A stretch of 64,000 nucleotides of DNA from Methanocella sp. (GCA_050261115.1 JBLNCY010000006.1:54599-118598); one strand, 5' to 3'. Shown: positions 3,123-16,700, counted from the stretch's first letter. Notes: generated from the sequence alone by a model not told the origin. Made by a program: numbers and translations.

Positions 3123-4094
3123 TTAGACTACAAGGTCAGCCATGTCTACACTGCGCTCATAAATTTGCCGCAGAAACTGAACCACAGCCAAAATCTGAGG
3201 CAACAAATCCACCGAAGAATCCTTCACAGCCGCCTCAATTCGGGAACAGTTGTCATCGACCTTTCCCCTCATCTCACGAACATTTTCAGCTAGTGCGATA
3301 TCCTTACATAAAAAGGCCTTGAACGCTTGCTCATTGGCATCTACACAGGTTGACTGCAACGCCAGCACCAGTCTCCTAAGTTCATCGGATAGCTTAGTGT
3401 TCTTGAGTTCAAGCGTGCTCTGCGCAATCTGAACGCAGGCGTCACCTATACCCTCAATAAAGCCCGCAATAAGACGGTAGTCCACGCATTCAATAGGAAT
3501 GATACCTAGCTTCTCGCTAAGTCGGGGGCTCTGCAAAATAGTACGCAGTATCCTAACAAGCAAAAAATAGAATTTGTTGTTCTCTACATCACGTTCGATA
3601 ACGTTCTTTGCTAAGTCCATATCAGAAGAGACAAAACTGCTAGCCGCATCACGGATCATCCGCACGGCGCTAGCCTGGTTACGCTGCAGGATTTTTCCCG
3701 GTGAAGTGAAGGGTTGCTGCATAAGGCACTGAAGCGTCATCATTGAGGGGGTTTCCTCAACAATCATAAGCCCAGCTAGCGAGTTCGCAGTGGATTTGAT
3801 GAGGTTACGCATGTTTGAGTCGATGCGGTCTTTGGCTTCTATTTTTATGATATCATAACCTAAGAGGTAGCGGCCGATGATTTCGCGGCTCAAATAAGGA
3901 TTAACCTTTAACGACACAGATTTAGGTTCGGGTTCAGAGGCGAATTGAGTGTCTACAAACAGTTTACCATCGCTGGTTACTTCGAGGTTAACTTGGGAGC
4001 CCTTCTGCAAGTTATGGCTCTTAGCCCATTCACGGGGTAAACAAACAAAAAACGTGCCAGTGGGAGTCTGCTGAATTTTACGCACTTCACTCAT
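3123..4094 (-). CDS. phoU: AbrB-domain PhoU-family phosphate uptake regulator
   Basis: N-terminal RKIQQTPTGTFFVCLPREWA AbrB-like domain followed by helical PhoU repeats. Confidence 0.85.
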   Translation of the reverse strand: MSEVRKIQQTPTGTFFVCLPREWAKSHNLQKGSQVNLEVTSDGKLFVDTQFASEPEPKSVSLKVNPYLSREIIGRYLLGYDIIKIEAKDRIDSNMRNLIKSTANSLAGLMIVEETPSMMTLQCLMQQPFTSPGKILQRNQASAVRMIRDAASSFVSSDMDLAKNVIERDVENNKFYFLLVRILRTILQSPRLSEKLGIIPIECVDYRLIAGFIEGIGDACVQIAQSTLELKNTKLSDELRRLVLALQSTCVDANEQAFKAFLCKDIALAENVREMRGKVDDNCSRIEAAVKDSSVDLLPQILAVVQFLRQIYERSVDMADLVV

Positions 4095-4275
4095 AGAGAC
4101 ACCAAGTTATAACACATCTAAACAAACCTGTCCCTATATAAATCGTAAGCATCAGGTTACGTCAACCCGGCTAGTAAGCCATACCAACAAGTGTTTTAGG
4201 GCAATGAAAAACAGTAAATAACTCTAAGCCATACTGCCTAACCATCGGAAACATAGTAATCGGGCAGAAGAATGC

Positions 4276-5898
4276 ATGAGTAGGCAAGAGAAACTCCAAA
4301 AAGCCATCGAGGCAGCCATCATTGCCGGCTACCAACTAAACAGCGAAGCTTTTGAGTTCCTTACCCAAAATGTGGACACAATGGACCCCGAAGCCGTAAT
4401 GAATCTAGCATTAATGCAGTTATCTGACTTAGAGGATAAGCCCATCTTCATCGACCGAGATAGACTCGTGTCAGTTATTCATCAATTAGCAGTTGCAGAA
4501 ATGCAACAAGCCTTAGAAAACCAAACCGAAACACAACCAACCAATGAACCCAATCCAGTTAACATATTCCCGGAAGCACAAAGCTACACCGAGCCAACCA
4601 TAAACGCGGTCGATGCCAGCGACTACTTTTACCCCTACGCCAAAGACATATCCTCCGAGCTTATAATCATAGAAGACCCCACAGGTAAACTCACCTCAAA
4701 CGGAACAATACAAGAATACACAGCGCTCTTCCAAGACCGCTTCAGACGGGTCGAAAAAATACTCCGCAACCGCATGGATGTCCGCTCAGCCACACCGCTA
4801 GCCGAAGCGGTCAAATCCCAACCGAAATCAAAACTCAAAGTCATCTGCATGCTAACAGAAAAACGCGACAGCAAAAACAACACCATCCTCTCAGTTGAAG
4901 ACCCAAACAGCAGCGCCACCATCGTCATCCCCCACAAGGCACCTGAAGAAGTAAAAAAGAAGGCACTAACACTATTGCCCGACACCGTCTTTTGTGCGGC
5001 AGTCATCAAAACCCGAACCAATCTGCTCATGGCAGAAGACATTATCCTCCCAGAAGTCGGCCGAAAAGCACCTAAACGGGCCCAAGAACCTGTCTATGCA
5101 GTGCTGACTTCAGATGTACATGTAGGTAGCAATAAATTTACCAAAGATGCATTTCGCCGTTTCATTCTTTGGCTAAGAGGTAAGTATGGCACCCCACAAA
5201 TGCGTGAAGTCGCAGGCCGCGTCAAGTACCTCTTAATCGCAGGTGACATCGTCGACGGCGTAGGTATTTATCCCGGTCAACAAACAGAACTCACCATACG
5301 TGATGTACGCAAGCAATACAACTTTGCCATCAAATATCTAGAAAAAATACCCAGCTACATAGAAATCGTGCTCTCACCAGGCAACCACGACGCCGCGCGT
5401 AAATCCCAACCTCAGCCAGCCATCCCAGAAGGATACCTAACCGCAATCAAAGATAAACCAAACATTCACTCTGTTGGCAGCCCCTGCTACCTAAGCATAC
5501 ATGGCGTTGAAGTCTTGATGTATCACGGTGTAAGCCTAAATGACATCATAGGGGTAGTGCCGGGGATGGATAATGATCATCCTGAGAAGTCCATGAGGCT
5601 ACTTATGCAGGATCGCCACTTGGCACCTATGTATGGCGGTAAAACCATGCTTTCGCCTGAGAACCGCGACTATATGGTTGTCGAGCGAGTCCCCGACATC
5701 TTTCATGCGGGTCACATTCACGTTTTAGGCTACTGTAACTATCGGGGGGTACTTGTAGTTAATTCGGGGGGCTGGCAACTGCAGACTGAGTATATGGAAA
5801 AGTTAGGGCTGATGCCTACGCCTGGGAAGGTTCCTGTAATCAACTTGCAAACAATGGAGATTACGGTTCTGGATTTCCTAAACCCCATTGAGAGTTAG
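4276..5898 (+). CDS. polD1: DNA polymerase D small (proofreading) subunit DP1
   Basis: OB fold plus calcineurin-like motifs SDVHVGS, GDIVDG, PGNHD, HLAP, GHIH. Confidence 0.95.
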   Translation: MSRQEKLQKAIEAAIIAGYQLNSEAFEFLTQNVDTMDPEAVMNLALMQLSDLEDKPIFIDRDRLVSVIHQLAVAEMQQALENQTETQPTNEPNPVNIFPEAQSYTEPTINAVDASDYFYPYAKDISSELIIIEDPTGKLTSNGTIQEYTALFQDRFRRVEKILRNRMDVRSATPLAEAVKSQPKSKLKVICMLTEKRDSKNNTILSVEDPNSSATIVIPHKAPEEVKKKALTLLPDTVFCAAVIKTRTNLLMAEDIILPEVGRKAPKRAQEPVYAVLTSDVHVGSNKFTKDAFRRFILWLRGKYGTPQMREVAGRVKYLLIAGDIVDGVGIYPGQQTELTIRDVRKQYNFAIKYLEKIPSYIEIVLSPGNHDAARKSQPQPAIPEGYLTAIKDKPNIHSVGSPCYLSIHGVEVLMYHGVSLNDIIGVVPGMDNDHPEKSMRLLMQDRHLAPMYGGKTMLSPENRDYMVVERVPDIFHAGHIHVLGYCNYRGVLVVNSGGWQLQTEYMEKLGLMPTPGKVPVINLQTMEITVLDFLNPIES

Positions 5899-7118
5899 GT
5901 TTTGTGGAGGCTTTTTGGCTGATAATTTAGCAGAGGGCCAAAACGTGCGTCTGTACCAAATACATCTTTTATTAAGCCACGGCTAATTTCAAGACGAATC
6001 TTCTTAGTTCGCCCATACCGGCCCATGCTAACAACTTTGGCGTTGACAAGCCCCATAGAATCAAGCTCGTTTACAAGCGTTCCGAGGCGTCGCTGGGTAA
6101 GTAATCCTGCGCCCATTTCGCCACAGAGTTCATTGTATATGTCATAGATTTCTCCTGTGGATGCACTGTGCTTGTTGAGGTGATATACGCTTAGCAGGAC
6201 AAGTTTTGAGTGCAACGTCAAGTTTTTTAGAGCTTCGATTACACGGTTGTGTTCTATGTGTTTTTCAGCTTGGCGAACGTGTTCTTCTGTGATGGTGGTT
6301 GCACCGTTCCGTTCGGCTACTTCACCGGCTACTCTGAGCAGGTCTAGAGCTCTTCTGGCATCGCCATGCTCTGCTGCGGCCAAGGCTGCGGATATGCTAA
6401 GTGCAGACTCAGTCAAAGCACCATCCATAAATGCAAGCTTTGATCGTTCAAACAAAATATTTCGGAGTTCGCTTGCATCGTAGGGTCGGAATACGAGTTC
6501 TTCTTCACTTAAGGAGCTGAATACACGGGGGTCTAGGAATTCTTTTAGGCGGAGGTCGTTTGATATGCCGATGATTGAGACTTTGCTTTTGTTGAGTGTT
6601 TCGTTGATGCGGGTGAGTTCGTACATGAAGGCGTCGCCTCGGTCTTTTATGAGGGCATCTACCTCGTCTAGTACGATGATGAATATAATGTAAGATTGGT
6701 CTAGGCCTGAGCGGAATCTATCGAAAACTTCGCCGACTGACAACCCAGTAAAGGGAATGGATAGCCCAACACTTTGGCTAAGGGCGGCAAAAACGCGGTA
6801 TTCTGAACCGGTCATGCGGCAGTTTATGTAACAGAATTTTATTTGGGCCCCATACTCTTTGGCTTTTGATTCGAGGTGGCTAAGGACGTATTTGGCTACT
6901 GCGGTTTTTCCTGTGCCGGTTTTGCCGTAGATGAATATGTTTGAGCAGCGGGCATTTCTTAGTACAGGGGCTACTGTGGATCCTAGGAGTCGGATTTGTT
7001 CTTCTCGGTGGGGGAGCTTTTCTGGTAGATAGTCATGTCTTAGGACTTCGCGGTCTTTGAAGAGTCTTGGGCCTTTTACGAAATTGTCAAACACATCATC
7101 AAGTACAGAGTTTCCCAT
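5895..7118 (-). CDS. cdc6: Orc1/Cdc6 replication initiator
   Basis: LPHREEQI, Walker A GKTGTGKT, Walker B LDEVD, GDARRALDLL, C-terminal wHTH GRYGRTK. Confidence 0.97.
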   Translation of the reverse strand: MGNSVLDDVFDNFVKGPRLFKDREVLRHDYLPEKLPHREEQIRLLGSTVAPVLRNARCSNIFIYGKTGTGKTAVAKYVLSHLESKAKEYGAQIKFCYINCRMTGSEYRVFAALSQSVGLSIPFTGLSVGEVFDRFRSGLDQSYIIFIIVLDEVDALIKDRGDAFMYELTRINETLNKSKVSIIGISNDLRLKEFLDPRVFSSLSEEELVFRPYDASELRNILFERSKLAFMDGALTESALSISAALAAAEHGDARRALDLLRVAGEVAERNGATTITEEHVRQAEKHIEHNRVIEALKNLTLHSKLVLLSVYHLNKHSASTGEIYDIYNELCGEMGAGLLTQRRLGTLVNELDSMGLVNAKVVSMGRYGRTKKIRLEISRGLIKDVFGTDARFGPLLNYQPKSLHKT

Positions 7119-7149
7119 TGTTTGCCCACCCTATTTTTTTTCAGAGGTA

Positions 7150-7170
7150 CAACCGTTATTTCGAGTGGAA
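7150..7170 (-). promoter_or_regulatory. ORB-like box 1
   Basis: Minus strand TTCCACTCGAAATAACGGTTG resembles ORB TTCCAGTGGAAA-n-GGGG. Confidence 0.65.
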
Positions 7171-7269
7171 CAGATAAAGGCTACAGTACAAAAAAATGGT
7201 TTTGAACAACAACATTCCTAAAAGAAGACAAAAACAGGCAGAAACAACCTATCAACCCAAGGATAGACT

Positions 7270-7291
7270 CACCCGTTGATTTCTACTGGAA
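7270..7291 (-). promoter_or_regulatory. ORB-like box 2
   Basis: Minus strand TTCCAGTAGAAATCAACGGGTG. Confidence 0.75.
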
Positions 7292-7455
7292 AAATCAACT
7301 AACTTTACACTAACCCATATTATAGTATAACATAATAATATACTCTGAGTTGTAAATTAGCTTTGAATATATTAATGATTGTTGTCCAAAAAAATAGATA
7401 GACTCTCAGAAATTATTTTTCGACCGCTTCTCAACTTCTTTTTTCCCCTAAAACT

Positions 7456-7477
7456 CTCGAGAGGAAAAAGAGGGGTG
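7456..7477 (+). promoter_or_regulatory. ORB-like box 3
   Basis: CTCGAGAGGAAAAAGAGGGGTG with G-string. Confidence 0.7.
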
Positions 7478-7612
7478 CCTCTCTGATCTGAATTCCATGG
7501 AAGAAAGCTTGTAAGCTGTCCCTTTGCTTCAATATTTTGCCATGGCTTGCTTTGCTCCTTACCAAAGTTCGCCTAGTGACCTCTTGATTGCCAGGTTTGG
7601 GTGGCTTAGGGG

Positions 7613-7913
7613 TTCACAAAACTGTGAATACATGTGAAATAGCAATAAATCTGTAGCTTTATCAAGCTTCTTTTTCGGAGATTTACTTGTTTTCTGTCTG
7701 TTAACAGTGAATGTGGCACCCCTTGGCTTCTACTGGAGAACTCGATTTAAGCTGGAAAGATAAATCTTTTAACCGTTTGTTTTTCTGTGAAGCTTGTAAT
7801 TCTAAAAACAATTATAAAATAAGTTATTTACTGAAAATAAGCTTGAATTGGGCTTTTTATTTTGGCTGTTTTCACCATCACAGTTATATGCTGTGAAGCT
7901 GTAGAGTTGTGAA
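7613..7913. repeat. GTGAA/TTCAC motif cluster upstream of the 143-aa wHTH gene
   Basis: Copies at 7613, 7624, 7634, 7707, 7787, 7871, 7893, 7909. Confidence 0.75.
7717..7738 (-). promoter_or_regulatory. ORB-like box 4
   Basis: Minus strand CTCCAGTAGAAGCCAAGGGGTG with G-string, inverted relative to box 3. Confidence 0.75.
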
Positions 7914-7932
7914 CAACCTAGGTGTCTAATTA

Positions 7933-8364
7933 GTGCCGACTCGCAAAATGCGCGTGGAGCTCTTTGACAATGAGGGCAATCGGTATACCATTGCCTTTGA
8001 GGGTCAAGTGACCCGCGACAAAGCTCTACGCCTGCTTGATCTTGTTGAATTGCTAGGCGGCACACCGAATGAAACATCAAATATAACAAGTCCAGCAGTA
8101 CCCAGTCCTCGTCAACTGTCTCGTTTTGAGAAGGTTCAAGCAGTAATTCAGAAGAATTTCCCCTTAATCTGGTTCTCATCCAAAGACATTCAGGCAGTCT
8201 ATGAGCAGGAATTCAAAGAACCTGTCAGCCTAAGCACCATATCCACCTACCTCTCCAGAATGGCCTCAAAAGGCATGCTTATGCGCACTGGCACCTCCAA
8301 CAACCTCAAGTACAAGACTGCCCCAAACATTCCAGCGACAATCAAGCAGCGTATAATAAAGTAG
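7933..8364 (+). CDS. Uncharacterised origin-adjacent protein with C-terminal winged helix
   Basis: Small N-terminal beta-hairpin/helix domain, P/S/T linker, wHTH FSSKDIQAVYEQ...LSTISTYLSRMASKGMLMRTG. Confidence 0.8.
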   Translation: MPTRKMRVELFDNEGNRYTIAFEGQVTRDKALRLLDLVELLGGTPNETSNITSPAVPSPRQLSRFEKVQAVIQKNFPLIWFSSKDIQAVYEQEFKEPVSLSTISTYLSRMASKGMLMRTGTSNNLKYKTAPNIPATIKQRIIK

Positions 8365-8365
8365 C

Positions 8366-8411
8366 TTCACAAGCCCTTCACAACAGTTCACCACTGTTCA
8401 CAGGGTTCACA
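8366..8411. repeat. Five phased TTCAC direct repeats
   Basis: TTCAC at 8366, 8377, 8387, 8397, 8406 (spacing 11, 10, 10, 9). Confidence 0.9.
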
Positions 8412-8484
8412 ACATGCTTGTATTAGGTTGACGATTATTGGTAGCTGCCCATATTTTTTAGCATGCTATTTAGTTGAGTTGAGT

Positions 8485-8532
8485 TGCGTCTCTTGCTTTG
8501 CCAAGAGACCCCTCCTTATATATATAGAGTCA
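8485..8532 (+). repeat. Dispersed intergenic repeat, copy 1
   Basis: tgcgtctcttgctttgccaagagacccctccttatatatatagagtca; matches copies at 40610, 45314 and 62633. Confidence 0.8.
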
Positions 8533-8645
8533 ACCTCGGGTTGAACCTGGTCTTGAAAGCATACCTGCAAAAATACTAGCCTCACGGAACCCTTTAGTAG
8601 TAAAGCCCAGGAGACTGTCTATTTTGCAGTGGAAAATAAATTCGG

Positions 8646-9527
8646 CTAGGTTACGGCTGGCGAAGGCTCTGTCTTCTGCAGCAGGGCCTCCATCTCCTTT
8701 TTAATTGTATATCGGAACGGAATCTTACCAGCCTCCCTCTCCACATAACCTTCCTCATAAATCCTTTTCATCAACCTAGCCGTATGCTCCCTGCTCAAGC
8801 CAAGACGCTCTTTAATTTCCGGTGCAGTCTTAGCGCCCTCCTTAGAGAGCATCTCCAGCACTGCAATCTCTGTCTCGGTCAACGCTGCAAGAGCCTTGTC
8901 ACGTTTGATAGGAACAACCGGAAGCGCCATTTCACTTCGAGCCTCTATTGGAGCCGGCGGGGCAGTAGCTAACTTTTGGAGTTGTTCTTCCAACATAGCA
9001 ATTTTTTGTTGCATGGCTTGCTGGGCATTTTGTGCCTCTTGGAGTTTTGCTTGGAGGGTTGCCATTTCGTTTGTGAGCTCTGATTTTAGGGTTGTATTGT
9101 TTTGTGTGATTTCTGCCAAGTTTGCTGTGACGTCCTGGGTTAGAGTTTGATGTATTTGGTTAAGGGCGATGATCTGGGTTTCCAAGGGGTCGATTAGGTT
9201 CTCTAGCCGTTCGGCCTTTCGGTAGCTGGCTTCTGCGGTGGAGTAGCTGCCCTCAACTCTTGTCACCATATTATCAAATTTTTCTGATTGACGTTTTAAT
9301 TCACGGTTAAAACTAAGCACTATATCGCCCAAGAAATCTTTGGCTTTAGCGTATTCTTGTAGGCTCTGTTCATATTGTAGATGAGTTTTTGCGTATTCCT
9401 GCTGGGTTAGCTCATATACTCGGTGAACTTTGCGGATTTGACGGTAGTATTCATATCCTGCTATTGCTGTGACAGCTAATAGCACGCCAAAGATTACTAC
9501 TGTTAGGTCAACCGTGATGCTCTCCAC
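8646..9527 (-). CDS. Membrane-anchored coiled-coil protein with C-terminal MarR-like winged helix
   Basis: N-terminal hydrophobic helix LTVVIFGVLLAVTAIAGY, ~160 aa Q/E/L/K-rich heptads, APPAP linker, wHTH LTETEIAVLEML...TAPEIKERLGLSREHTARLMKRIYEEGYVER. Confidence 0.85.
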   Translation of the reverse strand: MESITVDLTVVIFGVLLAVTAIAGYEYYRQIRKVHRVYELTQQEYAKTHLQYEQSLQEYAKAKDFLGDIVLSFNRELKRQSEKFDNMVTRVEGSYSTAEASYRKAERLENLIDPLETQIIALNQIHQTLTQDVTANLAEITQNNTTLKSELTNEMATLQAKLQEAQNAQQAMQQKIAMLEEQLQKLATAPPAPIEARSEMALPVVPIKRDKALAALTETEIAVLEMLSKEGAKTAPEIKERLGLSREHTARLMKRIYEEGYVEREAGKIPFRYTIKKEMEALLQKTEPSPAVT

Positions 9528-9867
9528 CTGTGATTTTTTCGTGATTCAACCGTGATTGTCACGTGATTATGATGATTTGTGATGATTACATGTGACATTA
9601 ACAGTTGCGTCACATATCACAAGTATCTCCATGGAAATTTAAGCCTATCGGTGACATTTTTCCATGAATTCATGACGTCACACATCACGGAAAACCGAAT
9701 TAATGCTTCTGTGATATCTATCCTTGGTTAAAGAGGCTTAATTTAAGCTTATTTTGTCGAAATAACTGTTATATTGGAGCTTGTGTGATGTGTGATAAAC
9801 TACCCCAAAATAGTGCAAAAATAATGGAAAAATTCGTGATTTGTGACGTCACAAAGGCTCTTGTGAT
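9514..9867. repeat. Dense GTGAY/RTCAC motif array
   Basis: 20 copies counted in ~355 bp; 11-bp phased run at 9530/9541/9552/9563; 12-mer GTGATNTGTGAY at 9609(-), 9677(-), 9785, 9836; palindrome TTTGTGACGTCACAAA at 9840-9855. Confidence 0.9.
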
Positions 9868-10346
9868 GGGCTAGAAAGCCGTTTTAGGCTTGTTTCGAGC
9901 TCATTTCTGATGATTTCTATGACTTTTGCATGGTCTTTTAGTTCCTCTTCCTTGCTGGGTAGGTTAGAGTGTGCGTCGACATAATCGTGCAGTTTATTGG
10001 CTATTTCTAAGTACGGGTCAAGAGTTGTGGTCTCAAAAACGCCCAAATAACCTAAAAGAAGTACTGTGTAAATGGATTTTATGACGTTTTCTCTGGACTG
10101 TTTTAAAGTCCTATTAAACGAACCGCGGCTTATTTTAGCCCTTGTTAGGCGTAAGGCTGCTTTTTCATCGTATTTTAGCTCTTTGCCTGCTATATTTTCC
10201 GATAAAATGTCAATGAGTAGCGTTTCGAGCTGTGTTTTTGTTAATTGGCTGTTTTTAGCCAGTATTTGTACAATAGGGTCTTTTAATGCTCCGTTTAACC
10301 ATGCTGTAACGCCGTCTTTTAGCTTCAAATCTCGTGATTCCTCCAT
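9849..10346 (-). CDS. Uncharacterised HTH-containing protein
   Basis: LTKTQLETLL...ISRGSFNRTLKQSRENV resembles a sigma-4/Bat-type HTH, followed by helical C-terminus. Confidence 0.7.
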   Translation of the reverse strand: MEESRDLKLKDGVTAWLNGALKDPIVQILAKNSQLTKTQLETLLIDILSENIAGKELKYDEKAALRLTRAKISRGSFNRTLKQSRENVIKSIYTVLLLGYLGVFETTTLDPYLEIANKLHDYVDAHSNLPSKEEELKDHAKVIEIIRNELETSLKRLSSPSQEPL

Positions 10347-10718
10347 ACCTTAAATGGATACAGTTTTGTATACCCACTCGGGTTTTTATCCTTTCGAAGC
10401 CCTCCTGACCCCAAAAACCGCTTGTTAAAGCAGATAAATTAGCCGTAAAAATGCAAATAACGCCTAAAAATTGAATTATTATTAAAAACAACGCTAAATT
10501 GGTACAGTTAACATAATAACGACTAAATCCTCGGTAATTTTATCGCTAAAAATGCCTGAACTTTACACAAAAAATGCACTTTTGCAAACGCCCACAACCC
10601 GCTAACCTCACCAGTTTTAACATACTCAGCACAATTAAACACACTTTTCAACCCCTAATCTAGCACCAAAACACATTTTTAGAAACCCAGCTCACAGTTC
10701 ACAATCCCGAAAAACCAC

Positions 10719-10791
10719 GTGATATCACCAAAAAATGCGTGATTTTAGCCTTAAACCACTTGATATCACAGCGTTGTGATGCACCTGTGAT
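10719..10791. repeat. Second GTGAT/ATCAC cluster
   Basis: Six copies (10719, 10724-, 10739, 10765-, 10776, 10787) including palindrome GTGATATCAC. Confidence 0.8.
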
Positions 10792-10826
10792 GCCCAAATA
10801 CCCATGGAGAACTTGTGGCATTCACT

Positions 10827-11660
10827 CTAAATCTGCTCAGACAACCGCCTTAGCTGGTCATAAAGCTCTGGGCGAAGGTCCCGTAAGGTCGGAATAAAGG
10901 TCTCAGCAGTACGCAAATCGCCAAAATCAACCTCACAAAACACAAAATCCTCCTCATCATACCTTGCCCTAGCTAAAACGTCCCCTGTTGGGCTCACAAC
11001 GCGGCTTCCACCCCAAAACTGCAAGCCATCCTCAACGCCTGCAAGGTTAACGTAGGCTAAATAGCAAGTGTTTTCCAAGGCCCGTGCCGCGGTAAGAACC
11101 TCAAAGTAGCTTCTGCGTACCGCTGGCGAAGCAGAAATGCAAATTATGAGTTGAGCCCCCTTCAGTCGGGATAGCCGAAAGACTTCGGGGAAGAAAACAT
11201 CATAGCAGATGGTTAGGCCGATGTTGCCGAGTTCAGTTTGGAAGGCGGCTGGTTCATATCCGGGCCGAAAATAGCGTTTCTCCTCAAACACGCTATGCGT
11301 TGGAAGATACATCTTGCGGTACTTGCCAATAAAGCCGTTTGGTCCCACTAGGACGGCGGTATTATAGATTGTCGCTTGGGTCTTCTCGCTTAGCTCTGGT
11401 AACCCAAAGACGATGTGTATGCCTGTTTTCTTAGCTATCTCTTCAACTTTCGCTGTGCTAGGTCCGGGGACTGGTTCGGCTAGCGTGTACACTTGGTCTC
11501 GCAGTACATAGCCGGTAAGGCACATTTCAGGGAAAACAGCCAAGTCCACGCCCTCGGCTTTTGCCCTCTGGGTTAATTCTTCGATTTTTGCTAGGTTTGC
11601 GTTTTTGTTTTCTCGTTGGGGTGCGATTTGGCAGAGGGCAAGCTTGATTCTGGCTTTCAT
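10827..11660 (-). CDS. Carbon-nitrogen hydrolase (nitrilase family)
   Basis: E-K-C triad in FPE, YRK and ICYD; probable start MKARIKLAL at 11660. Confidence 0.9.
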   Translation of the reverse strand: MKARIKLALCQIAPQRENKNANLAKIEELTQRAKAEGVDLAVFPEMCLTGYVLRDQVYTLAEPVPGPSTAKVEEIAKKTGIHIVFGLPELSEKTQATIYNTAVLVGPNGFIGKYRKMYLPTHSVFEEKRYFRPGYEPAAFQTELGNIGLTICYDVFFPEVFRLSRLKGAQLIICISASPAVRRSYFEVLTAARALENTCYLAYVNLAGVEDGLQFWGGSRVVSPTGDVLARARYDEEDFVFCEVDFGDLRTAETFIPTLRDLRPELYDQLRRLSEQI

Positions 11661-11670
11661 GCTATTCCCT

Positions 11671-12513
11671 TTAGTATGTGTGTCTGGGTAGCCTAAAATC
11701 GTTTCCCGGAGTTCTAAACCCCAGTTTAGGTGACAGCGGCGTGCGCCGTTTATGCTCGGTTGCAAGGATGCGGGCTTGGACGCGATCAACGATTGCCTGT
11801 TCTATGTTTAGTTGCTCAGCGATTTCTTGTGGTTTCATGAACCGTTCTAGGCCGTAGAGAATCAAATCCAGCGTTTCGTATTTGATTTCGAGTTCTCCCT
11901 CTGCGGTTTGGTTTGGCCAAAGCGAGGGGGTTGCGGGTTTGAGCGCGAGTTCCTTTGGAATTCCAACGTGCATGGCTAGCCGTCGGACTTGGGTTTTGTA
12001 GAGGTCGATGATGGGTGTGATGTCTGCTGCGGCGTCACCCCATTTGGTAAAGTAGCCCATGTAGGTCTCGGACTTGTCTGAGGTGCCCGCGACGATTCGG
12101 CTTTGGTTATTTGCGTAGTAGTAGAGAATTATCATGCGGGTGCGGGCTTTGATGTTTCCTTTGCAGAGCCGCTCAGTTGGGTTGAATTCTGGAATACCCT
12201 TGTAGAATTCCTCAAGGATACTGCTCATATTCACGGTTTGGGTTTGAAGGTGGAATAGGTCAGCTATGGTTTTTGCGTCGTCGAGGTCTTGCTGCCGAAA
12301 AGTTTCCTTCTCAGGCATTATGAGGGCTAGCACGTTTTCTCCTCCGATGGCAAGGCTTGAGAGTGCGGCTGTGACGGCGCTATCCACACCGCCTGAGAGA
12401 CCCAGCACGATGCCTTTGGCGTCTGCGTTTTCTACGTATTCTTTGATAAAGCGGCAGATGCGGTTTTGCACTTCAGAGAAGTCGAGTTCCAATACTTGGG
12501 GGGTTAACTTCAA
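11671..12513 (-). CDS. nadE: NAD+ synthetase (synthetase domain only)
   Basis: GLSGGVDS, NIKARTRM, GYFTKWGD, KTQV motifs. Confidence 0.95.
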   Translation of the reverse strand: MKLTPQVLELDFSEVQNRICRFIKEYVENADAKGIVLGLSGGVDSAVTAALSSLAIGGENVLALIMPEKETFRQQDLDDAKTIADLFHLQTQTVNMSSILEEFYKGIPEFNPTERLCKGNIKARTRMIILYYYANNQSRIVAGTSDKSETYMGYFTKWGDAAADITPIIDLYKTQVRRLAMHVGIPKELALKPATPSLWPNQTAEGELEIKYETLDLILYGLERFMKPQEIAEQLNIEQAIVDRVQARILATEHKRRTPLSPKLGFRTPGNDFRLPRHTY

Positions 12514-12607
12514 GGTTTAGGCAGCCTCACTGTGAAGGTTAGTAGGCAAGTATTTAAGCAGAAGGATAAATATTAATGACTACATCCAAAACTATGAAGG
12601 AAAATTT

Positions 12608-12877
12608 ATGGGGCGAAGAAGGAAAAAAGTAGTTCATGTTCCAAAGAAAAAGTTACCAAAGTTCTTCTCTTGCCCTAGGTGTGGTAAAGCAACCGTCCGA
12701 GTAGAAATCAATCGTGAGGAAGGCGGACGGGCCGTTGCACAATGTAGTAGCTGCGGACTTAGGGAAGAATTCACAGTAAAATCCGCACAAGGCGAAGTTG
12801 ATGTTTACTGCATGCTAACGGATAGAGTCTACGCTAATTTAAAGCGGACTCCCATAACTAAGGCTAAAGAAGAATAA
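12608..12877 (+). CDS. elf1: Transcription elongation factor Elf1-like zinc ribbon
   Basis: MGRRRKK, FSCPRC...CSSCG...EVDVYC. Confidence 0.85.
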   Translation: MGRRRKKVVHVPKKKLPKFFSCPRCGKATVRVEINREEGGRAVAQCSSCGLREEFTVKSAQGEVDVYCMLTDRVYANLKRTPITKAKEE

Positions 12878-12892
12878 ACTGACGGATGCTCA

Positions 12893-13645
12893 ATGGCTGG
12901 GCCCATAGAACGGTACTTGCTCGACAAAATCAAGGTCGATGGCTCAATCCATATGACGCTCATTGACCCCGAAAAAGTAACCGCAGAGGAAGCAGCAAGT
13001 ATCGCCCAAAGCGCCAGCAACAGCGGAACCGCAGCCATAATGATTGGCGGCTCAACGGTATCCTCCCAGAAGCAACTCGATGAAGTAGTTCAAGCGATAA
13101 AAGCCGCGGTGGCGACGCCGACGATTCTTTTTCCAGGCAACGTCAACGGGATTAGCAGAAACGCTGACGCCATCTGGTTTATGTCGATGCTGAACTCCAC
13201 CGACCCCTACTTTTTGATGGGCGCCCAAATCATAGGCGCACCATACATAAAAAAATTCAACATCGAACCCCTATCAATGGGCTATATAATTGTGGGTGAC
13301 GGCGGCACAGTGGGTAAAGTCGGTAAAGCCATCCCTATTTCGTATAGCAACCCTGAGCTAGCCGTGGCACATGCCCTTGCAGGTCAATACTTGGGCATGC
13401 GCTTTATCTATCTTGAAGGCGGCTCAGGCGTAAAGGTTCCTGTCCCCACAGATATGATTCGCGCGGTTAAGCAGACAATTGATATCCCCTTAATCGTCGG
13501 AGGCGGCATTCGTACCCCTGAGGCTGCAGCGGTCGCGGCTGATGCAGGAGCCGACATCATCGTCACAGGTAACCTCATCGAAACAAGCGAAGGCACCCAA
13601 CGAGTGGCCCAGATAGTCAAGGCCATCAAACACAGACGCGCTTAA
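12893..13645 (+). CDS. Geranylgeranylglyceryl phosphate synthase (PcrB family)
   Basis: TLIDPEK, IGGS, LFPG, YLEGGSG, VGGGIR motifs. Confidence 0.93.
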   Translation: MAGPIERYLLDKIKVDGSIHMTLIDPEKVTAEEAASIAQSASNSGTAAIMIGGSTVSSQKQLDEVVQAIKAAVATPTILFPGNVNGISRNADAIWFMSMLNSTDPYFLMGAQIIGAPYIKKFNIEPLSMGYIIVGDGGTVGKVGKAIPISYSNPELAVAHALAGQYLGMRFIYLEGGSGVKVPVPTDMIRAVKQTIDIPLIVGGGIRTPEAAAVAADAGADIIVTGNLIETSEGTQRVAQIVKAIKHRRA

Positions 13646-13717
13646 GTTCTTTTGTGATTTGTTTTCGAAAGCCCAAAATACCCTTTAGTCATTACTGTTG
13701 GGCAGTGACGCGGCAAC

Positions 13718-16700
13718 TTGAACATCAACCAGGGCATAAGTAAAAGCTACCGATCCTACGTCGAGGGCTTGGAGGCAGAACTCAAGCACCTCTATGAAAT
13801 CAGCGACGCCGCCAGATCCCTAGGCTTAGACCCCGCCCTAAAAACCGAATGCTTGGTTGCACAGGACATAGCTGACCTCGTAGAGGGTCTAGTGGGACCC
13901 ACAGGCGTCGCAGTCAGCATCCGCGAACTCAGCAAAAAAATGCCCCGCGAAGAAATCGCCTTCTATGCCGCCAAAGAGATTGCAGAGGGCAAATTCGCCC
14001 AAACCGACGAAGAGCGCCAACCTGAACAGCTAGCAGAGCAAGCTATTCGGACGGCACTGGCCATTTTTACCGAAGGCTTAACCGCCGCTCCCATCCAGGG
14101 CATTGCGCATGTGAAGATTAAGAAGAACGCTGACCAGACACGATATTTAGCGGTTTACTTCGCAGGACCAATCCGCTCTGCTGGCGGAACAGACCAAGCC
14201 CTAACTCTGGTCGTTGCCGACTACGTAAGGCGCGCCTTGGGGTTGGATGTGTATAAGCCCACCGAAGAAGAAGTCTCCCGCTTCATAGAGGAGCTTCGAC
14301 TCTACGAGCGCAGTGTAGGCCGCTTCCAGTACCACATTCCCGATGAGGAACTCCGCAAGGCACTCAACATCGTCCCCGTCGAATGCACGGGCACCGAATC
14401 CGACCCCGTCGAAGTCTCCTCCTACCGCAACCTGGACCGCGTGGAAACTAACCGCGTCCGGGGCGGCGCCCTAAGAGTCATTAACGACGGCATTGTAGGC
14501 CGGGCCCAGAAAGTCTGGGTTGTCTGCGACAAAATCGGTTTTCATGAATGGGATTGGCTTAAGAATTTTAAAAAGAAGTCTGAGAAGAAATCCGCGGGCT
14601 TCATGGATGATGTCATCGCTGGTCGCCCCATTTTCGCTTTTCCCTCCACCCGGGGCGGCTTTAGACTTCGATATGGCCGCTCACGCAACACAGGCCTCTC
14701 CGCGGTGGGTATCCACCCTGCCACTATGGCTGTTGTGGAGGGGTTTTTGGCTGCTGGAACACAGATGCGTCTAGAGTTGCCCGGCAAAGGCGGCGTCACC
14801 CTGCCAGTAGATTACATAGAAGAGCCCGTGGTGCTGCTCAAAGATAACTCTGTTGTCCGCGTCTCCCTAACAAAGCTGCCAGATGTCAAAGGCAAAATCG
14901 CAAAAATCCTCTTTCTAGGAGACATGCTTATCGACTTTGGCGACTTCCTCTACAGTAACAAAACCCTAATTCCCTCTGGCTATGTGGAGGAATGGTACTG
15001 CCAAGACCTCAACAACGCGGTACTGTCCCTCTTTGGCGGCGATTTAGAGAAGGCTGCGGAGGCTTGCGGCCTCTCATCTAAGCGCCTAGATGCCCTTATC
15101 CATGACCCTTTCAAGAACAAACCCAACATCAAAGAGGCATCTGCGCTCTGTCGAGCCCTCGGCGTTCCACTGGCGCCTAACTGCCTACATTACTGGAGTA
15201 ATCTGGCAACCGTTGCAGAGGTTGAGTTGATGCGTAAGTGGCTAGCTAGCTGTGATGTCACCGAAGCAGACGACGTGGGTTGCAGGATCACAGGCGCCGC
15301 AGGCAACGATGTTGTTACGGCTCTGCGGAAGGCCTTCATACCTCACAAGTACCTCGAGGGCAAAGTTACTATCCAGGGTCAAGATGCTGCCTCGTTTGCG
15401 TTCACGCTTGGGTATGGATCGTCAGGGCTAACTGAGCCGTTCCAAGCAGAAACCGTGCTCGAATTGTTGTCCAAGACCTCTGGCGTAATGATCAAGGATA
15501 AGGCTCCAACGTATGTGGGTGGACGTATGGGGCGTCCTGAGAAAGCCAAGCACCGTGATATGCGTCCTTTGGTGCATGTGCTTTTTCCTGTGGGGCTTGC
15601 AGGTGGTAGTCACCGTGATCTCTGTGCTGCAGCTAAAAAAAGCGCCGTGTTTGTTGAGATGGTTAAACGCAAATGCCCCGAATGCAAAACTTACACTATA
15701 AAACTCAAATGTGACGCTTGCGGTGTACCGACAATTCAGGAAAAAACTTGCCCCCGATGCGGCCGTTCTTTAAAGGATAGCTACTGCGGGTCATGTAAAG
15801 CTGACGCGGTTCTCTATCAGCGTCAACCCGTTAATTTTAAGCACCTCATCGATGGTGCATGCGCTACTCTTGGTTGTTCCCCGCCCAAGATGCTTAGAGG
15901 CGTAAAAGGCTTAACAAACCTTGACAAAACCCCCGAGATGCTCGAGAAAGGGATACTGCGCGCCAAGTACGGGGTTTCAACCTACAAAGATGGCACAACT
16001 CGCTTCGACGGTACCAACGCCCCCCTTACCCATATCACTCCTGAAGAAATCGGCGTCTCTGTTGAGAAGATGCATCAGATGGGCTACCACTATGACACGC
16101 ATGGCTTGCCATTAACTCACCCTTCTCAGGTTTGTGAACTTAAAATCCAAGACGTCGTCATCCCCCGAAAAGCAGGCGACTATCTCCTCCGCGTCGCAGG
16201 GTTTGTCGATGAGTTGCTTGAGAAAGTCTACAAGCTCCCACCCTACTACAAAGCCACCAAACCCGAAGACATGGTGGGTCAGCTTATCTTTGGGCTTGCC
16301 CCTCACACCTGCGCCTGCATCCTTGGCCGTATCGTAGGCTACACAGATCGCAACCTCATCTATGCGCATCCAGTTTGGCACTCTGCTAAACGCCGAGACT
16401 GCGACGGCGACGAAGACGCCATTATGCTAGCGTTAGATACGCTTTTGAATTTTTCAAAGGTTTTCTTACCTAGCCAAATCGGCGGTATCATGGATGCTCC
16501 TATCCTTATGTTGCCTTTCTGCAATACCAGGGAGGTTCAGCGTCAGGCCCACGACTTTGACGTTAGCCAAATTTACCCAGTGGAGTTCTATCGTAAAACT
16601 TGGGAGAAAGGCGAATCCCGTACCGTAAGTGCCGTTATGGATGTAATTAGCCACCGTCTTGGTACTGAGGGCCAATTTGAGGGTTACCAGTTCACTGTGC

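Follow-up and report, generated by a model that had tools for sequence, protein, structure and literature searches.

How the single replication origin of Thaumarchaeota and Bathyarchaeia is positioned, segregated and timed is a question to which we know of no answer in the field. It is raised by a locus in a 64,000-nucleotide stretch of DNA from Methanocella sp. (GCA_050261115.1 JBLNCY010000006.1:54599-118598; "the window" below is this whole stretch, and positions are counted from its first letter), a genome that we assign to the Bathyarchaeia. Three unnamed genes, which we call A, B and C (143, 293 and 165 amino acids), adjoin the gene for Orc1/Cdc6, and short repeated motifs lie in the spaces around them (Table 1). 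A reading made from the sequence alone had proposed that genes and motif arrays together tether or segregate the origin without ParA. The open reading frames (ORFs) of the three genes were found where that reading had placed them, directly beside Orc1/Cdc6. The absence of a ParA-type gene was also borne out: the contig that carries the window (C6) gave no match along its whole length to the ParA/MinD-type profiles CbiA and AAA_31. Several lines of evidence lead us to view A as a binder of sites embedded in the origin and B as a membrane-anchored binder of a second array, the two serving as a tether or as a control on initiation that works without ParA. We give this reading a probability of roughly 0.45; the arrangement probably marks, regulates or anchors the origin.

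The arrays are built from T-type sites (GTGAA/TTCAC) and R-type sites (GTGAY/RTCAC). The copy numbers first read by eye proved exact, with 13 T-type copies in 7613-8410, eight upstream and five downstream of gene A, and 26 R-type copies, 20 in array 1 and six in array 2. The 9-11 bp spacing claimed for several runs was likewise recovered: the intervals are 11/10/10/9 in the downstream T array and 11/11 in the first R copies, and the R sites include four 7-bp direct dimers as well. When the whole assembly (2,148,294 bp) was scanned for comparable clusters none was found elsewhere, and both arrays are the densest windows of the 2.15-Mb assembly. The R cluster of 20 sites in 350 bp is the genome maximum (0.92 expected; next best window, 7), as are the T clusters of 5 sites in 60 bp (0.11 expected; next best 4, in the 16S rRNA stem region) and of 8 sites in 350 bp (next best 5). 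Elsewhere, motif-dense windows turned out to be the 16S rRNA gene or coding repeats instead of arrays. Although the locus makes up just 0.18% of the genome, it contains 4 of the 13 R dimers of seven bp, 4 of the 14 R pairs with a spacing of 10-11 bp, and 5 of the 20 T pairs with one of 9-11 bp. Sites pooled from 21 loci gave the extended motifs TTCACA(A) and A-n-[AG]TCACA.

Searches of related genomes gave similar results. Here and below, the loci compared are kin, so that counts of loci overstate their independence, and the label "AOA-like" (for ammonia-oxidizing archaea), applied to the small complete genomes of family f19, is inferred. The dimer TGTGAYNTGTGAY has two to three matches per genome in G000, G003, G014 and G052, all of them within the B-C spacer, and reversed-pattern controls for it gave 0 matches; it was not found in the AOA-like genome G243. 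The triple pattern GTGAYN{5,6}GTGAYN{5,6}GTGAY is confined to the locus in G000, G014 and G052, which supports uniqueness; it has no match in G003 or G243 and is therefore not universal. Four of five genomes have a single match to TTCACANNNNTGTGAA, which lies ~320 bp ahead of gene A. GTTAACN{4,8}GTTAAC, searched in five AOA-like genomes, had matches elsewhere and equally high counts in its controls (GTTAAC is itself palindromic).

The spacer between cdc6 and A is, to judge from its sequence, the origin, and the T sites are predicted to be part of oriC. Of the features used to recognize an archaeal oriC, the spacer has an adjacent orc1/cdc6 gene and an AT-rich stretch between inverted boxes. 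An alignment of the Cdc6-A spacers of ten loci of the same family reveals four such boxes, which we liken to archaeal origin recognition boxes (ORBs) with their G-string, on what we take to be the ORB consensus. The kilobase that holds the spacer has a G+C fraction of 0.38, and the two exact matches of TTCTACTGGARAA in the genome both fall in the spacer. The eight T sites upstream of A lie at about -320, -309, -299, -226, -146, -62, -40 and -24 from its start, with position and orientation conserved. A palindrome, TTCACAAAACTGTGAA, occupies 7613-7628 and is unique in each of four genomes of the genus; one T copy abuts the fourth ORB-like box (ORB4), and three surround TTATAT, the putative TATA of A (7884-7889), 44-49 bp before the start codon.

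It had been suggested that the T sites bracket gene A. Their positions on both sides of the gene hold in this genome, but as a bracket the pattern fails, because the downstream array is lineage-specific: at least two TTCAC copies within 100 bp of the A stop are found in only 5 of 21 loci. Genomes in which A has moved are more informative. In five genomes 20-500 kb separate A and cdc6. There, 8-10 GTGAA/TTCAC sites remain in the 1.2 kb before cdc6, where TGTGAA ranks among the top hexamers in all five, while the region upstream of the relocated A has only 0-5 sites. That the T sites stay with cdc6 when A relocates (five of five) is hard to square with their being mere operators of A. We therefore describe the T array not as a bracket around A but as an oriC component that is interleaved with the ORB-like boxes and follows cdc6. 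In three complete AOA-like genomes (G237, G061 and G254; loci L153, L156 and L157) A stands at the very end of the linearized record, which fits records cut at the cdc6 origin.

Motif identity had been expected to co-vary with DNA-reading residues, and for A it does so, at residue 102 of the recognition helix and residue 126 of the wing. GTGAA is replaced by GTTAA(C) at the corresponding positions in the AOA-like loci and in g18, a genus within a Bathyarchaeia family. We compared residue 102 with site counts per 700 bp at 68 loci, two having been dropped (short flank; no helix match). The 54 loci with Thr102 average 6.6 GTGAA and 3.0 GTTAA; all 10 AOA-like loci with Ile or Val102 have more GTTAA (10-16) than GTGAA (1-5); and the four with Ala102 average 9.0 GTTAA and 5.5 GTGAA, GTTAA being in excess at three of them. 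In an alignment of 46 sequences, only 3 of 143 columns (11, 102 and 126) split both GTTAA lineages from the 37 other sequences. Column 102 is the third residue of the recognition helix and is Thr in 37 of 37 of these others; column 126 lies in the wing and is Lys or Arg in 30 of the 37. In a maximum-likelihood tree the two GTTAA lineages form separate clades (support 100/100 and 100/98), implying at least two changes. The replacement of Thr102 by a hydrophobic residue alongside a change from G:C to T:A would match what direct base contact predicts.

Protein A was predicted (AlphaFold model from 46 sequences; mean predicted local distance difference test, pLDDT, 75.5) to begin with a beta-beta-alpha unit, which a disordered linker joins to a C-terminal winged helix whose recognition helix is residues 100-112, LSTISTYLSRM. 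Its claimed winged helix-turn-helix (wHTH) is upheld by the model and by fold matches in Foldseek (RosR, MecI/BlaI, Fur and ArsR; E about 6e-3), but not by the Pfam score: Penicillinase_R gives 17.6 bits, below the cut-off of 22.6, and the likeness to BlaI/MecI is at the level of the fold only. Operators of BlaI/MecI have an ACA/TGT core that resembles the A palindrome. A resembles these repressors and RosR in the fold of its C-terminal domain; its N-terminal beta-beta-alpha domain differs from BlaI/MecI-type repressors. Among its homologues in a large protein collection, the best 120 of 2851 clusters are all "hypothetical" and without a Pfam domain.

The R sites were expected to bracket gene C and to cover the promoter of B. 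Their positions bracket C here, but the association is with B. For 35 loci holding C we compared the densest 350 bp of each. Where a B wHTH stands no more than 3 kb from C (29 loci), this maximum has a median of 11 R sites and is 9 or higher in 21 loci; where none stands so near (six loci), the median is 2.5 and no locus reaches 9. A B wHTH query found nothing in any of five genomes that keep A and C. In L121, where B lies 7 kb from C, the densest R window is away from C and is taken to lie beside B. In G084 (L113:8040-8500), some 15 kb away from cdc6, a short B gene overlaps C in the same orientation, and R-type sites stand within the coding sequences of both.

The second half of the expectation was correct, since array 1 spans the TATA and transcription start site (TSS) regions of B. 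Read on the gene strand, the C stop codon lies within TGTGACGTCACAAATCAC and is followed by the dimer TGTGATGTGTGAT, by CCTTAAA(A/T), which is the probable TATA element of B, by a second dimer at the expected start site and then by 2-9 ATCAC copies, spaced 10-11 bp, up to the B start codon. In this genome the array ends in the palindrome GTGACGTCAC on the C stop codon; the putative TATA region is at about 9639-9645, and the 7-bp dimers TGTGAYNTGTGAY are in the TSS region. The number of ATCAC copies in the leader (9530-9620) varies from two to nine among the close relatives L013-L030, this genome having the most, which suggests expansion and contraction of the repeat.

Protein B bears out its description as a transmembrane (TM) segment, coiled coil and wHTH. 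A single TM helix is predicted at its N-terminus (residues about 4-26), where hydropathy shows one segment only (maximum 2.44 over 19 residues on the KD19 scale), with an acidic N-flank and a basic C-flank, and aligned orthologues have a hydrophobic stretch at the same place. A long coiled coil follows, and the C-terminal winged helix is of the MarR/TrmB type, above the Pfam cut-offs (MarR 31.5 vs 24.6; TrmB 30.6 vs 25.6). All 16 aligned sequences, which range from Bathyarchaeia to AOA-like genomes, have the same recognition helix, REHTARLMK. B thus belongs with MarR/TrmB in its C-terminal domain; unlike those repressors it adds a TM helix and a coiled coil, and neither A nor B has a detectable regulon outside the locus.

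The HTH claimed for protein C was not confirmed. The model is all-helical with a pLDDT of 65, and no match was found to Pfam or NCBIfam families, in Foldseek against the PDB at E up to 0.001 or, beyond meaningless hits, in a profile search of PDB sequences. Matches in the ESM Atlas were confined to "hypothetical" clusters and a Sigma70_r4 lead of 0.78, below the trustworthy range; the homologues form 316 representative clusters without a name. Read by eye, LTKTQLETL...ISRGSFNRTLKQ could possibly be a sigma-r4/HTH_10-like motif. Just downstream of its putative TATA, C has a palindrome, GGTATACAAAACTGTATCC, conserved in nine of nine aligned loci, which shares the core ACAAAACTGT with the T palindrome. 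The pattern [TC]ACAAAACTGT[AG] occurs twice in the genome, in this palindrome and in the T palindrome at 7615, and the C palindrome may be a cross-regulatory site. A predicted complex of B (residues 30-293) with A and C, C being the proposed partner, scored 0.00, which speaks neither for nor against binding. The A/C-rich, poorly conserved spacer upstream of C also contains four same-strand copies of AAAAATGC within 292 bp (10447-10738); they are four of 12 matches in the window, where 5.9 are expected.

The module is, on its distribution, ancient. Of 61 related genomes, 56 have a single copy of A, as do 199 of 301 genomes sampled across the phylum, including 44 of 44 in family f19; the C family is present in 144 of the 301. 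Synteny with cdc6, one of the checks proposed at the outset, held in the order and beyond it: each of the 20 order-level loci has A beside Cdc6, and so do complete AOA-like genomes. It is not universal: among 40 further loci, 22 have Cdc6 no more than 1.1 kb from A. B and C come next in each order-level locus whose contig is long enough (that of L031 stops after A), and the order PolD-small, Cdc6, A, B, C, GGGPS, PolD-large is kept in AOA-like L115 and L125 and in other classes. The arrays, too, are present in orthologous loci at conserved positions. In 9 of 19 related loci an insert of 2.6-2.9 kb separates A from B; in the two that were read (L013:8515-11050 and L015:8486-11063) it carries genes for a weakly NurA-like protein of about 340 amino acids and a HerA-like (DUF87) ATPase of about 520. 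Neither gene was found in this genome by tblastn. Since relatives have a HerA-like ATPase inside the module, the statement that it lacks a nucleoside triphosphatase (NTPase) is valid for this genome only.

Table 1. Features of the locus, in window coordinates. ORB-like boxes were read from the ten-locus alignment; promoter elements are putative.
Feature	Position	Strand	Remarks
PhoU-like gene	3123-4094	-	
PolD small subunit gene	4276-5898	+	
Orc1/Cdc6 gene	5895-7118	-	divergent from origin spacer; Pfam Cdc6_lid 7e-24, Cdc6_C 7e-24, AAA
Predicted oriC spacer	7119-7932		814 bp, between cdc6 and gene A
ORB-like box TTTCGAGTGGAAC	7159-7171		
ORB-like box CACCC..TTTCTACTGGAAAA	7270-7293		
AT-rich stretch	about 7300-7420		between second and third (inverted) boxes
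ORB-like box CTCGAGAGGAAAAAGAGGGGTG	7456-7477		inverted
T-type sites TTCACA/TGTGAA	7613-7913		8 copies, starting at 7613, 7624, 7634, 7707, 7787, 7871, 7893, 7909
ORB-like box CACCCC..TTCTACTGGAGAA	7717-7740		fourth box
Gene A	7933-8364	+	143 aa
Downstream T array	8366-8410	+	five direct TTCAC(A), 9-11 bp apart, directly after A stop
Gene B	8646-9527	-	293 aa
R array 1	9514-9867		20 RTCAC/GTGAY sites over B start, leader, putative TATA and TSS region
Gene C	9849-10346	-	165 aa
Palindrome GGTATACAAAACTGTATCC	10356-10374	-	just downstream of putative TATA of C; 9/9 aligned loci
R array 2	10719-10791		6 sites, with the palindrome GTGATATCAC among them; upstream of C by 370-445 bp; block conserved in 9 aligned loci
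C-N hydrolase gene	10827-11789	-	
NAD synthetase, GGGP synthase and PolD large subunit genes			downstream of C-N hydrolase

The PhoU-like gene beside PolD-small encodes a fusion of a MazE/AbrB-like domain with PhoU and is kept in most of the order-level loci fetched. The genome has a second, divergent Cdc6 paralogue (G000:C47:25348-26490; 31% identity), whose upstream 800 bp contain no T- or R-type cluster. Sequence words sampled from 7100-10900 were held by 18 runs from 10 coded studies; 12 of the runs hold half or more of the words (share 0.93-0.95), and these 12 are labeled as sludge, anaerobic digester, bioreactor or compost metagenomes.

Metatranscriptome contigs cover cdc6, A and B in four of four runs and C in two of four, although DNA carry-over is possible in such libraries and their depth cannot rank genes. 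Contigs for A begin at 7927-7955, which fits a very short leader. Contigs of three runs from three studies end at 9580-9582, a weak hint that several R copies lie within the B leader. In the four runs 7309-7926, 9583-9891 and 10300-10792 were uncovered; lack of cover proves nothing.

These observations can be joined in a model of an ancient origin-attached module made of two protein/site pairs and a partner protein. The winged-helix protein A, presumably a dimer, would recognize the half-site TTCACA; with its sites woven among the ORB boxes and over its own promoter, it could act as an accessory origin factor and as its own repressor. B would be a single-pass membrane protein (N-out/C-in) whose cytoplasmic coiled coil carries a wHTH that recognizes RTCACA, and its array, 2.1-3.4 kb from the AT-rich stretch where unwinding would begin, might serve both to autoregulate B and to hold an origin-proximal locus at the membrane. 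C would be a helical partner or regulator. So constituted, the module would act like the bacterial origin-membrane tethers RacA, RocS and RicO with an accessory origin factor added, and it would do so without ParA. Two binders with essentially one target locus each, both beside the origin, favor a positional or structural role over a regulon. Which protein binds which site, the insertion of B into the membrane and any effect on the position, segregation or initiation of the origin are steps that we infer.

A number of observations weigh against this view. The co-variation of A with its sites rests on two evolutionary events. One Ala102 locus, L165, in which Lys126 is kept, retains GTGAA sites (10 vs 5), and GTTAA slightly exceeds GTGAA in 6 of the 54 Thr102 loci. 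The same column test applied to Cdc6 found that 33 of 407 columns split the GTTAA lineages, though with one g18 and two AOA sequences only, so Cdc6 may co-vary with the sites as well. The coiled coil of B is dispensable, B having 194 amino acids in an AOA-like genome and 146 in G084, and 8 of the 29 loci that have B near C show a low R density (4-8 per 350 bp). Linkage to cdc6, which holds in the order and in AOA-like genomes, is lost in families f26, f31 and f41, where the genes are dispersed. Finally, the sites are where promoter operators would sit, flanking TATA, at the TSS and in the leader, so that autoregulation alone would explain their conserved positions. Of the conditions that the sequence-only reading named as refuting it, three were examined (orthologues unlinked to cdc6, arrays missing from their loci, similar clusters elsewhere in the genome), and none told against it. 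Its tethering interpretation is partly supported by the linkage, the arrays, their uniqueness and the co-variation; its T bracket, its pairing of the R sites with C and any universal linkage to cdc6 have to be given up.

A serious rival holds that the three proteins are simply transcription factors, local repressors or activators that control their own genes, that the arrays are their operators and that the genes stand near oriC by inherited order, without a structural part to play; B, as a sensor in the membrane that some signal releases or modulates, would regulate itself and C, and C would regulate other genes through a different site. We regard this as possible, though on the unlikely side. 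It accounts for the T sites that flank the TATA and TSS of A, for the R dimers that do the same for B, for the direct repeats that fill a leader into which the contig ends at 9580-9582 put four or five R copies, and for the conserved palindrome, a putative operator, that C has of its own; A as a generic wHTH (MecI/BlaI, RosR, Fur) and B with its MarR/TrmB scores are also what it would lead one to expect. However, a regulator with strong sites solely in its own locus has no output, and 8 to 20 sites per array far exceed the needs of an operator. The T arrays, moreover, are set among ORB-like boxes as far as 320 bp from the A start, and they stay with cdc6 and are lost from the promoter of a relocated A, the opposite of what autoregulation predicts. 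A role at the level of RNA, in which AUCAC in the B leader binds an RNA-binding protein or shapes translation, would explain the leader copies that vary from two to nine among relatives, and the RNA contigs reaching 9580-9582 make it probable that the copies at 9530-9567 are transcribed. Yet R sites occur in both orientations, and also upstream of the promoter, at the C stop and in a cluster 850 bp away; a scan of 7000-11000 gave no Rfam match at E up to 1; and the motif has the same sense as the 16S 3' end as we take it to read, rather than being complementary to it. We consider such a role very improbable.

Two further rivals were weighed. The T sites might be read by Orc1/Cdc6 or by its second paralogue on contig C47, the changes in A being coincidental markers of lineage. 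The sites do lie inside oriC, one of them abutting ORB4, they follow cdc6 rather than A, and the discriminating columns of Cdc6 include R375 in its winged-helix domain. This is nonetheless improbable in our judgment, given that so few columns of A discriminate and that two of them are the DNA-reading helix and wing, that distinct, canonical-looking ORB boxes are already there, that T sites also flank the A promoter, and that the region upstream of the paralogue has none. Still less probable is that the locus is the relic of a captured extrachromosomal replicon, in which the repeats would be iterons, A a second initiator of the Rep or WhiP kind and the region a second or composite origin. A wHTH gene next to direct repeats at intervals of about 10-11 bp would suit such a history, and there is a precedent in oriC3-WhiP of Sulfolobus, a winged-helix initiator gained by capture according to the portion of PMC4010727 drawn on here. 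Against it stand a single-copy module in 199 of 301 genomes of the phylum with the same gene order up to AOA, the absence of integrase and other mobile-element genes from the ORFs listed for 4000-14000, the lack of a PHROG match for A and C, and the lack of a helicase-loading or Rep domain in A in family and fold searches.

If B is a tether, its closest functional relatives are bacterial. RacA/ram and RocS are origin-membrane tethers of bacteria. RicO of S. aureus is another (bioRxiv 10.64898/2026.03.06.710092, in the part used here). In so far as these accounts go, the three proteins and B alike combine site-specific DNA binding and a membrane element in one protein and have no ParA of their own, and their specific sites, as those of B would be, are concentrated near the origin; B has a DNA-binding domain, a predicted membrane element and, if it is the binder of the R sites, sites confined to the origin region. 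B differs in its reversed domain order, in having a true N-terminal TM helix where the others have an amphipathic helix or a DivIVA contact, in sites gathered into a single dense array over its own promoter, where theirs are scattered near the origin, and in being archaeal. No homology of B to RacA, RocS or RicO was detected, Pfam and NCBIfam giving only MarR/TrmB/Lrs14-type and generic coiled-coil matches.

The arrays themselves recall plasmid partition systems, of which ParR/parC of R1 is one. Another is omega (ParB) of pSM19035, which, in the sections of PMC9499535 consulted, binds WATCACW heptads arrayed directly and inverted over its own promoters, serving autoregulation and as a centromere. 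As in this locus, short non-palindromic units overlap promoters, and WATCACW shares its core with the R site (A)ATCACA, an identity that is most likely coincidence. Dimers spaced by 7 bp occur here as in the omega heptads, but most copies here are 10-11 bp apart and not contiguous. Omega and ParR belong to the ribbon-helix-helix class and work with ParA or ParM, whereas here the binder would be a membrane-anchored winged helix. Of the hallmarks of a partition cassette, the locus has an array over the promoter of the presumed binder; it has neither a ribbon-helix-helix or ParB-HTH binder nor, among the ORFs listed for 4000-14000, a partner NTPase.

Among archaea, the nearest comparison for A is UBP, an abundant nucleoid protein that binds the non-ORB motif ucm in Sulfolobus oriC and has hundreds of sites (PMC12141716, as far as the extract at hand goes). 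Both cases would pair a short non-ORB origin motif with a small accessory protein distinct from Orc1/Cdc6. By the same extract, the UBP gene is not at the origin; the A gene normally adjoins it, and its site clusters are unique to oriC, the T clusters and palindrome being confined there instead of recurring at many sites in the genome. SegAB of Sulfolobus, described in the consulted part of PMC7617429 as a chromosome-associated site-specific binder with a proposed role in segregation, is also archaeal, but it needs the ParA-like SegA, and a SegA-type gene is not on this contig. That part of the review, from 2024 and on the cell cycle, names only SegAB (Sulfolobus) and ParAB homologues (Asgard archaea). 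A full-text literature search found no description of the genes or arrays; it did not cover Pelve et al. 2013, on the N. maritimus origin, which may describe repeats. Bacteria are known to have systems of this kind; what is new is the set of proteins, their motifs and the archaeal setting.

The module offers three unnamed single-copy proteins and two defined DNA motifs for testing, and a laboratory test would be feasible if cultured ammonia oxidizers share it. The specificity switch predicts the outcome of a swap: GTGAA should go with Thr102 and Lys or Arg126, and GTTAA with Ile, Val or Ala102 and a non-basic residue at 126. More speculatively, and with considerable doubt on our part, Bathyarchaeia, Nitrososphaeria (AOA) and related Thermoproteota might share an ancestral, ParA-independent way of managing the origin, in which A, as a second sequence-specific protein that recognizes the origin and has its sites in among the ORB boxes, gates Orc1/Cdc6 or MCM while B, as a transmembrane centromere binder, and its partner C pin new origins to the membrane, coupling initiation, segregation and growth. 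If A is indeed embedded in the origin, it would be the second case, after UBP/ucm, of non-Orc proteins built into archaeal origins, and if B does tether DNA to the membrane, archaea would have in it their first counterpart of RacA, RocS and RicO.

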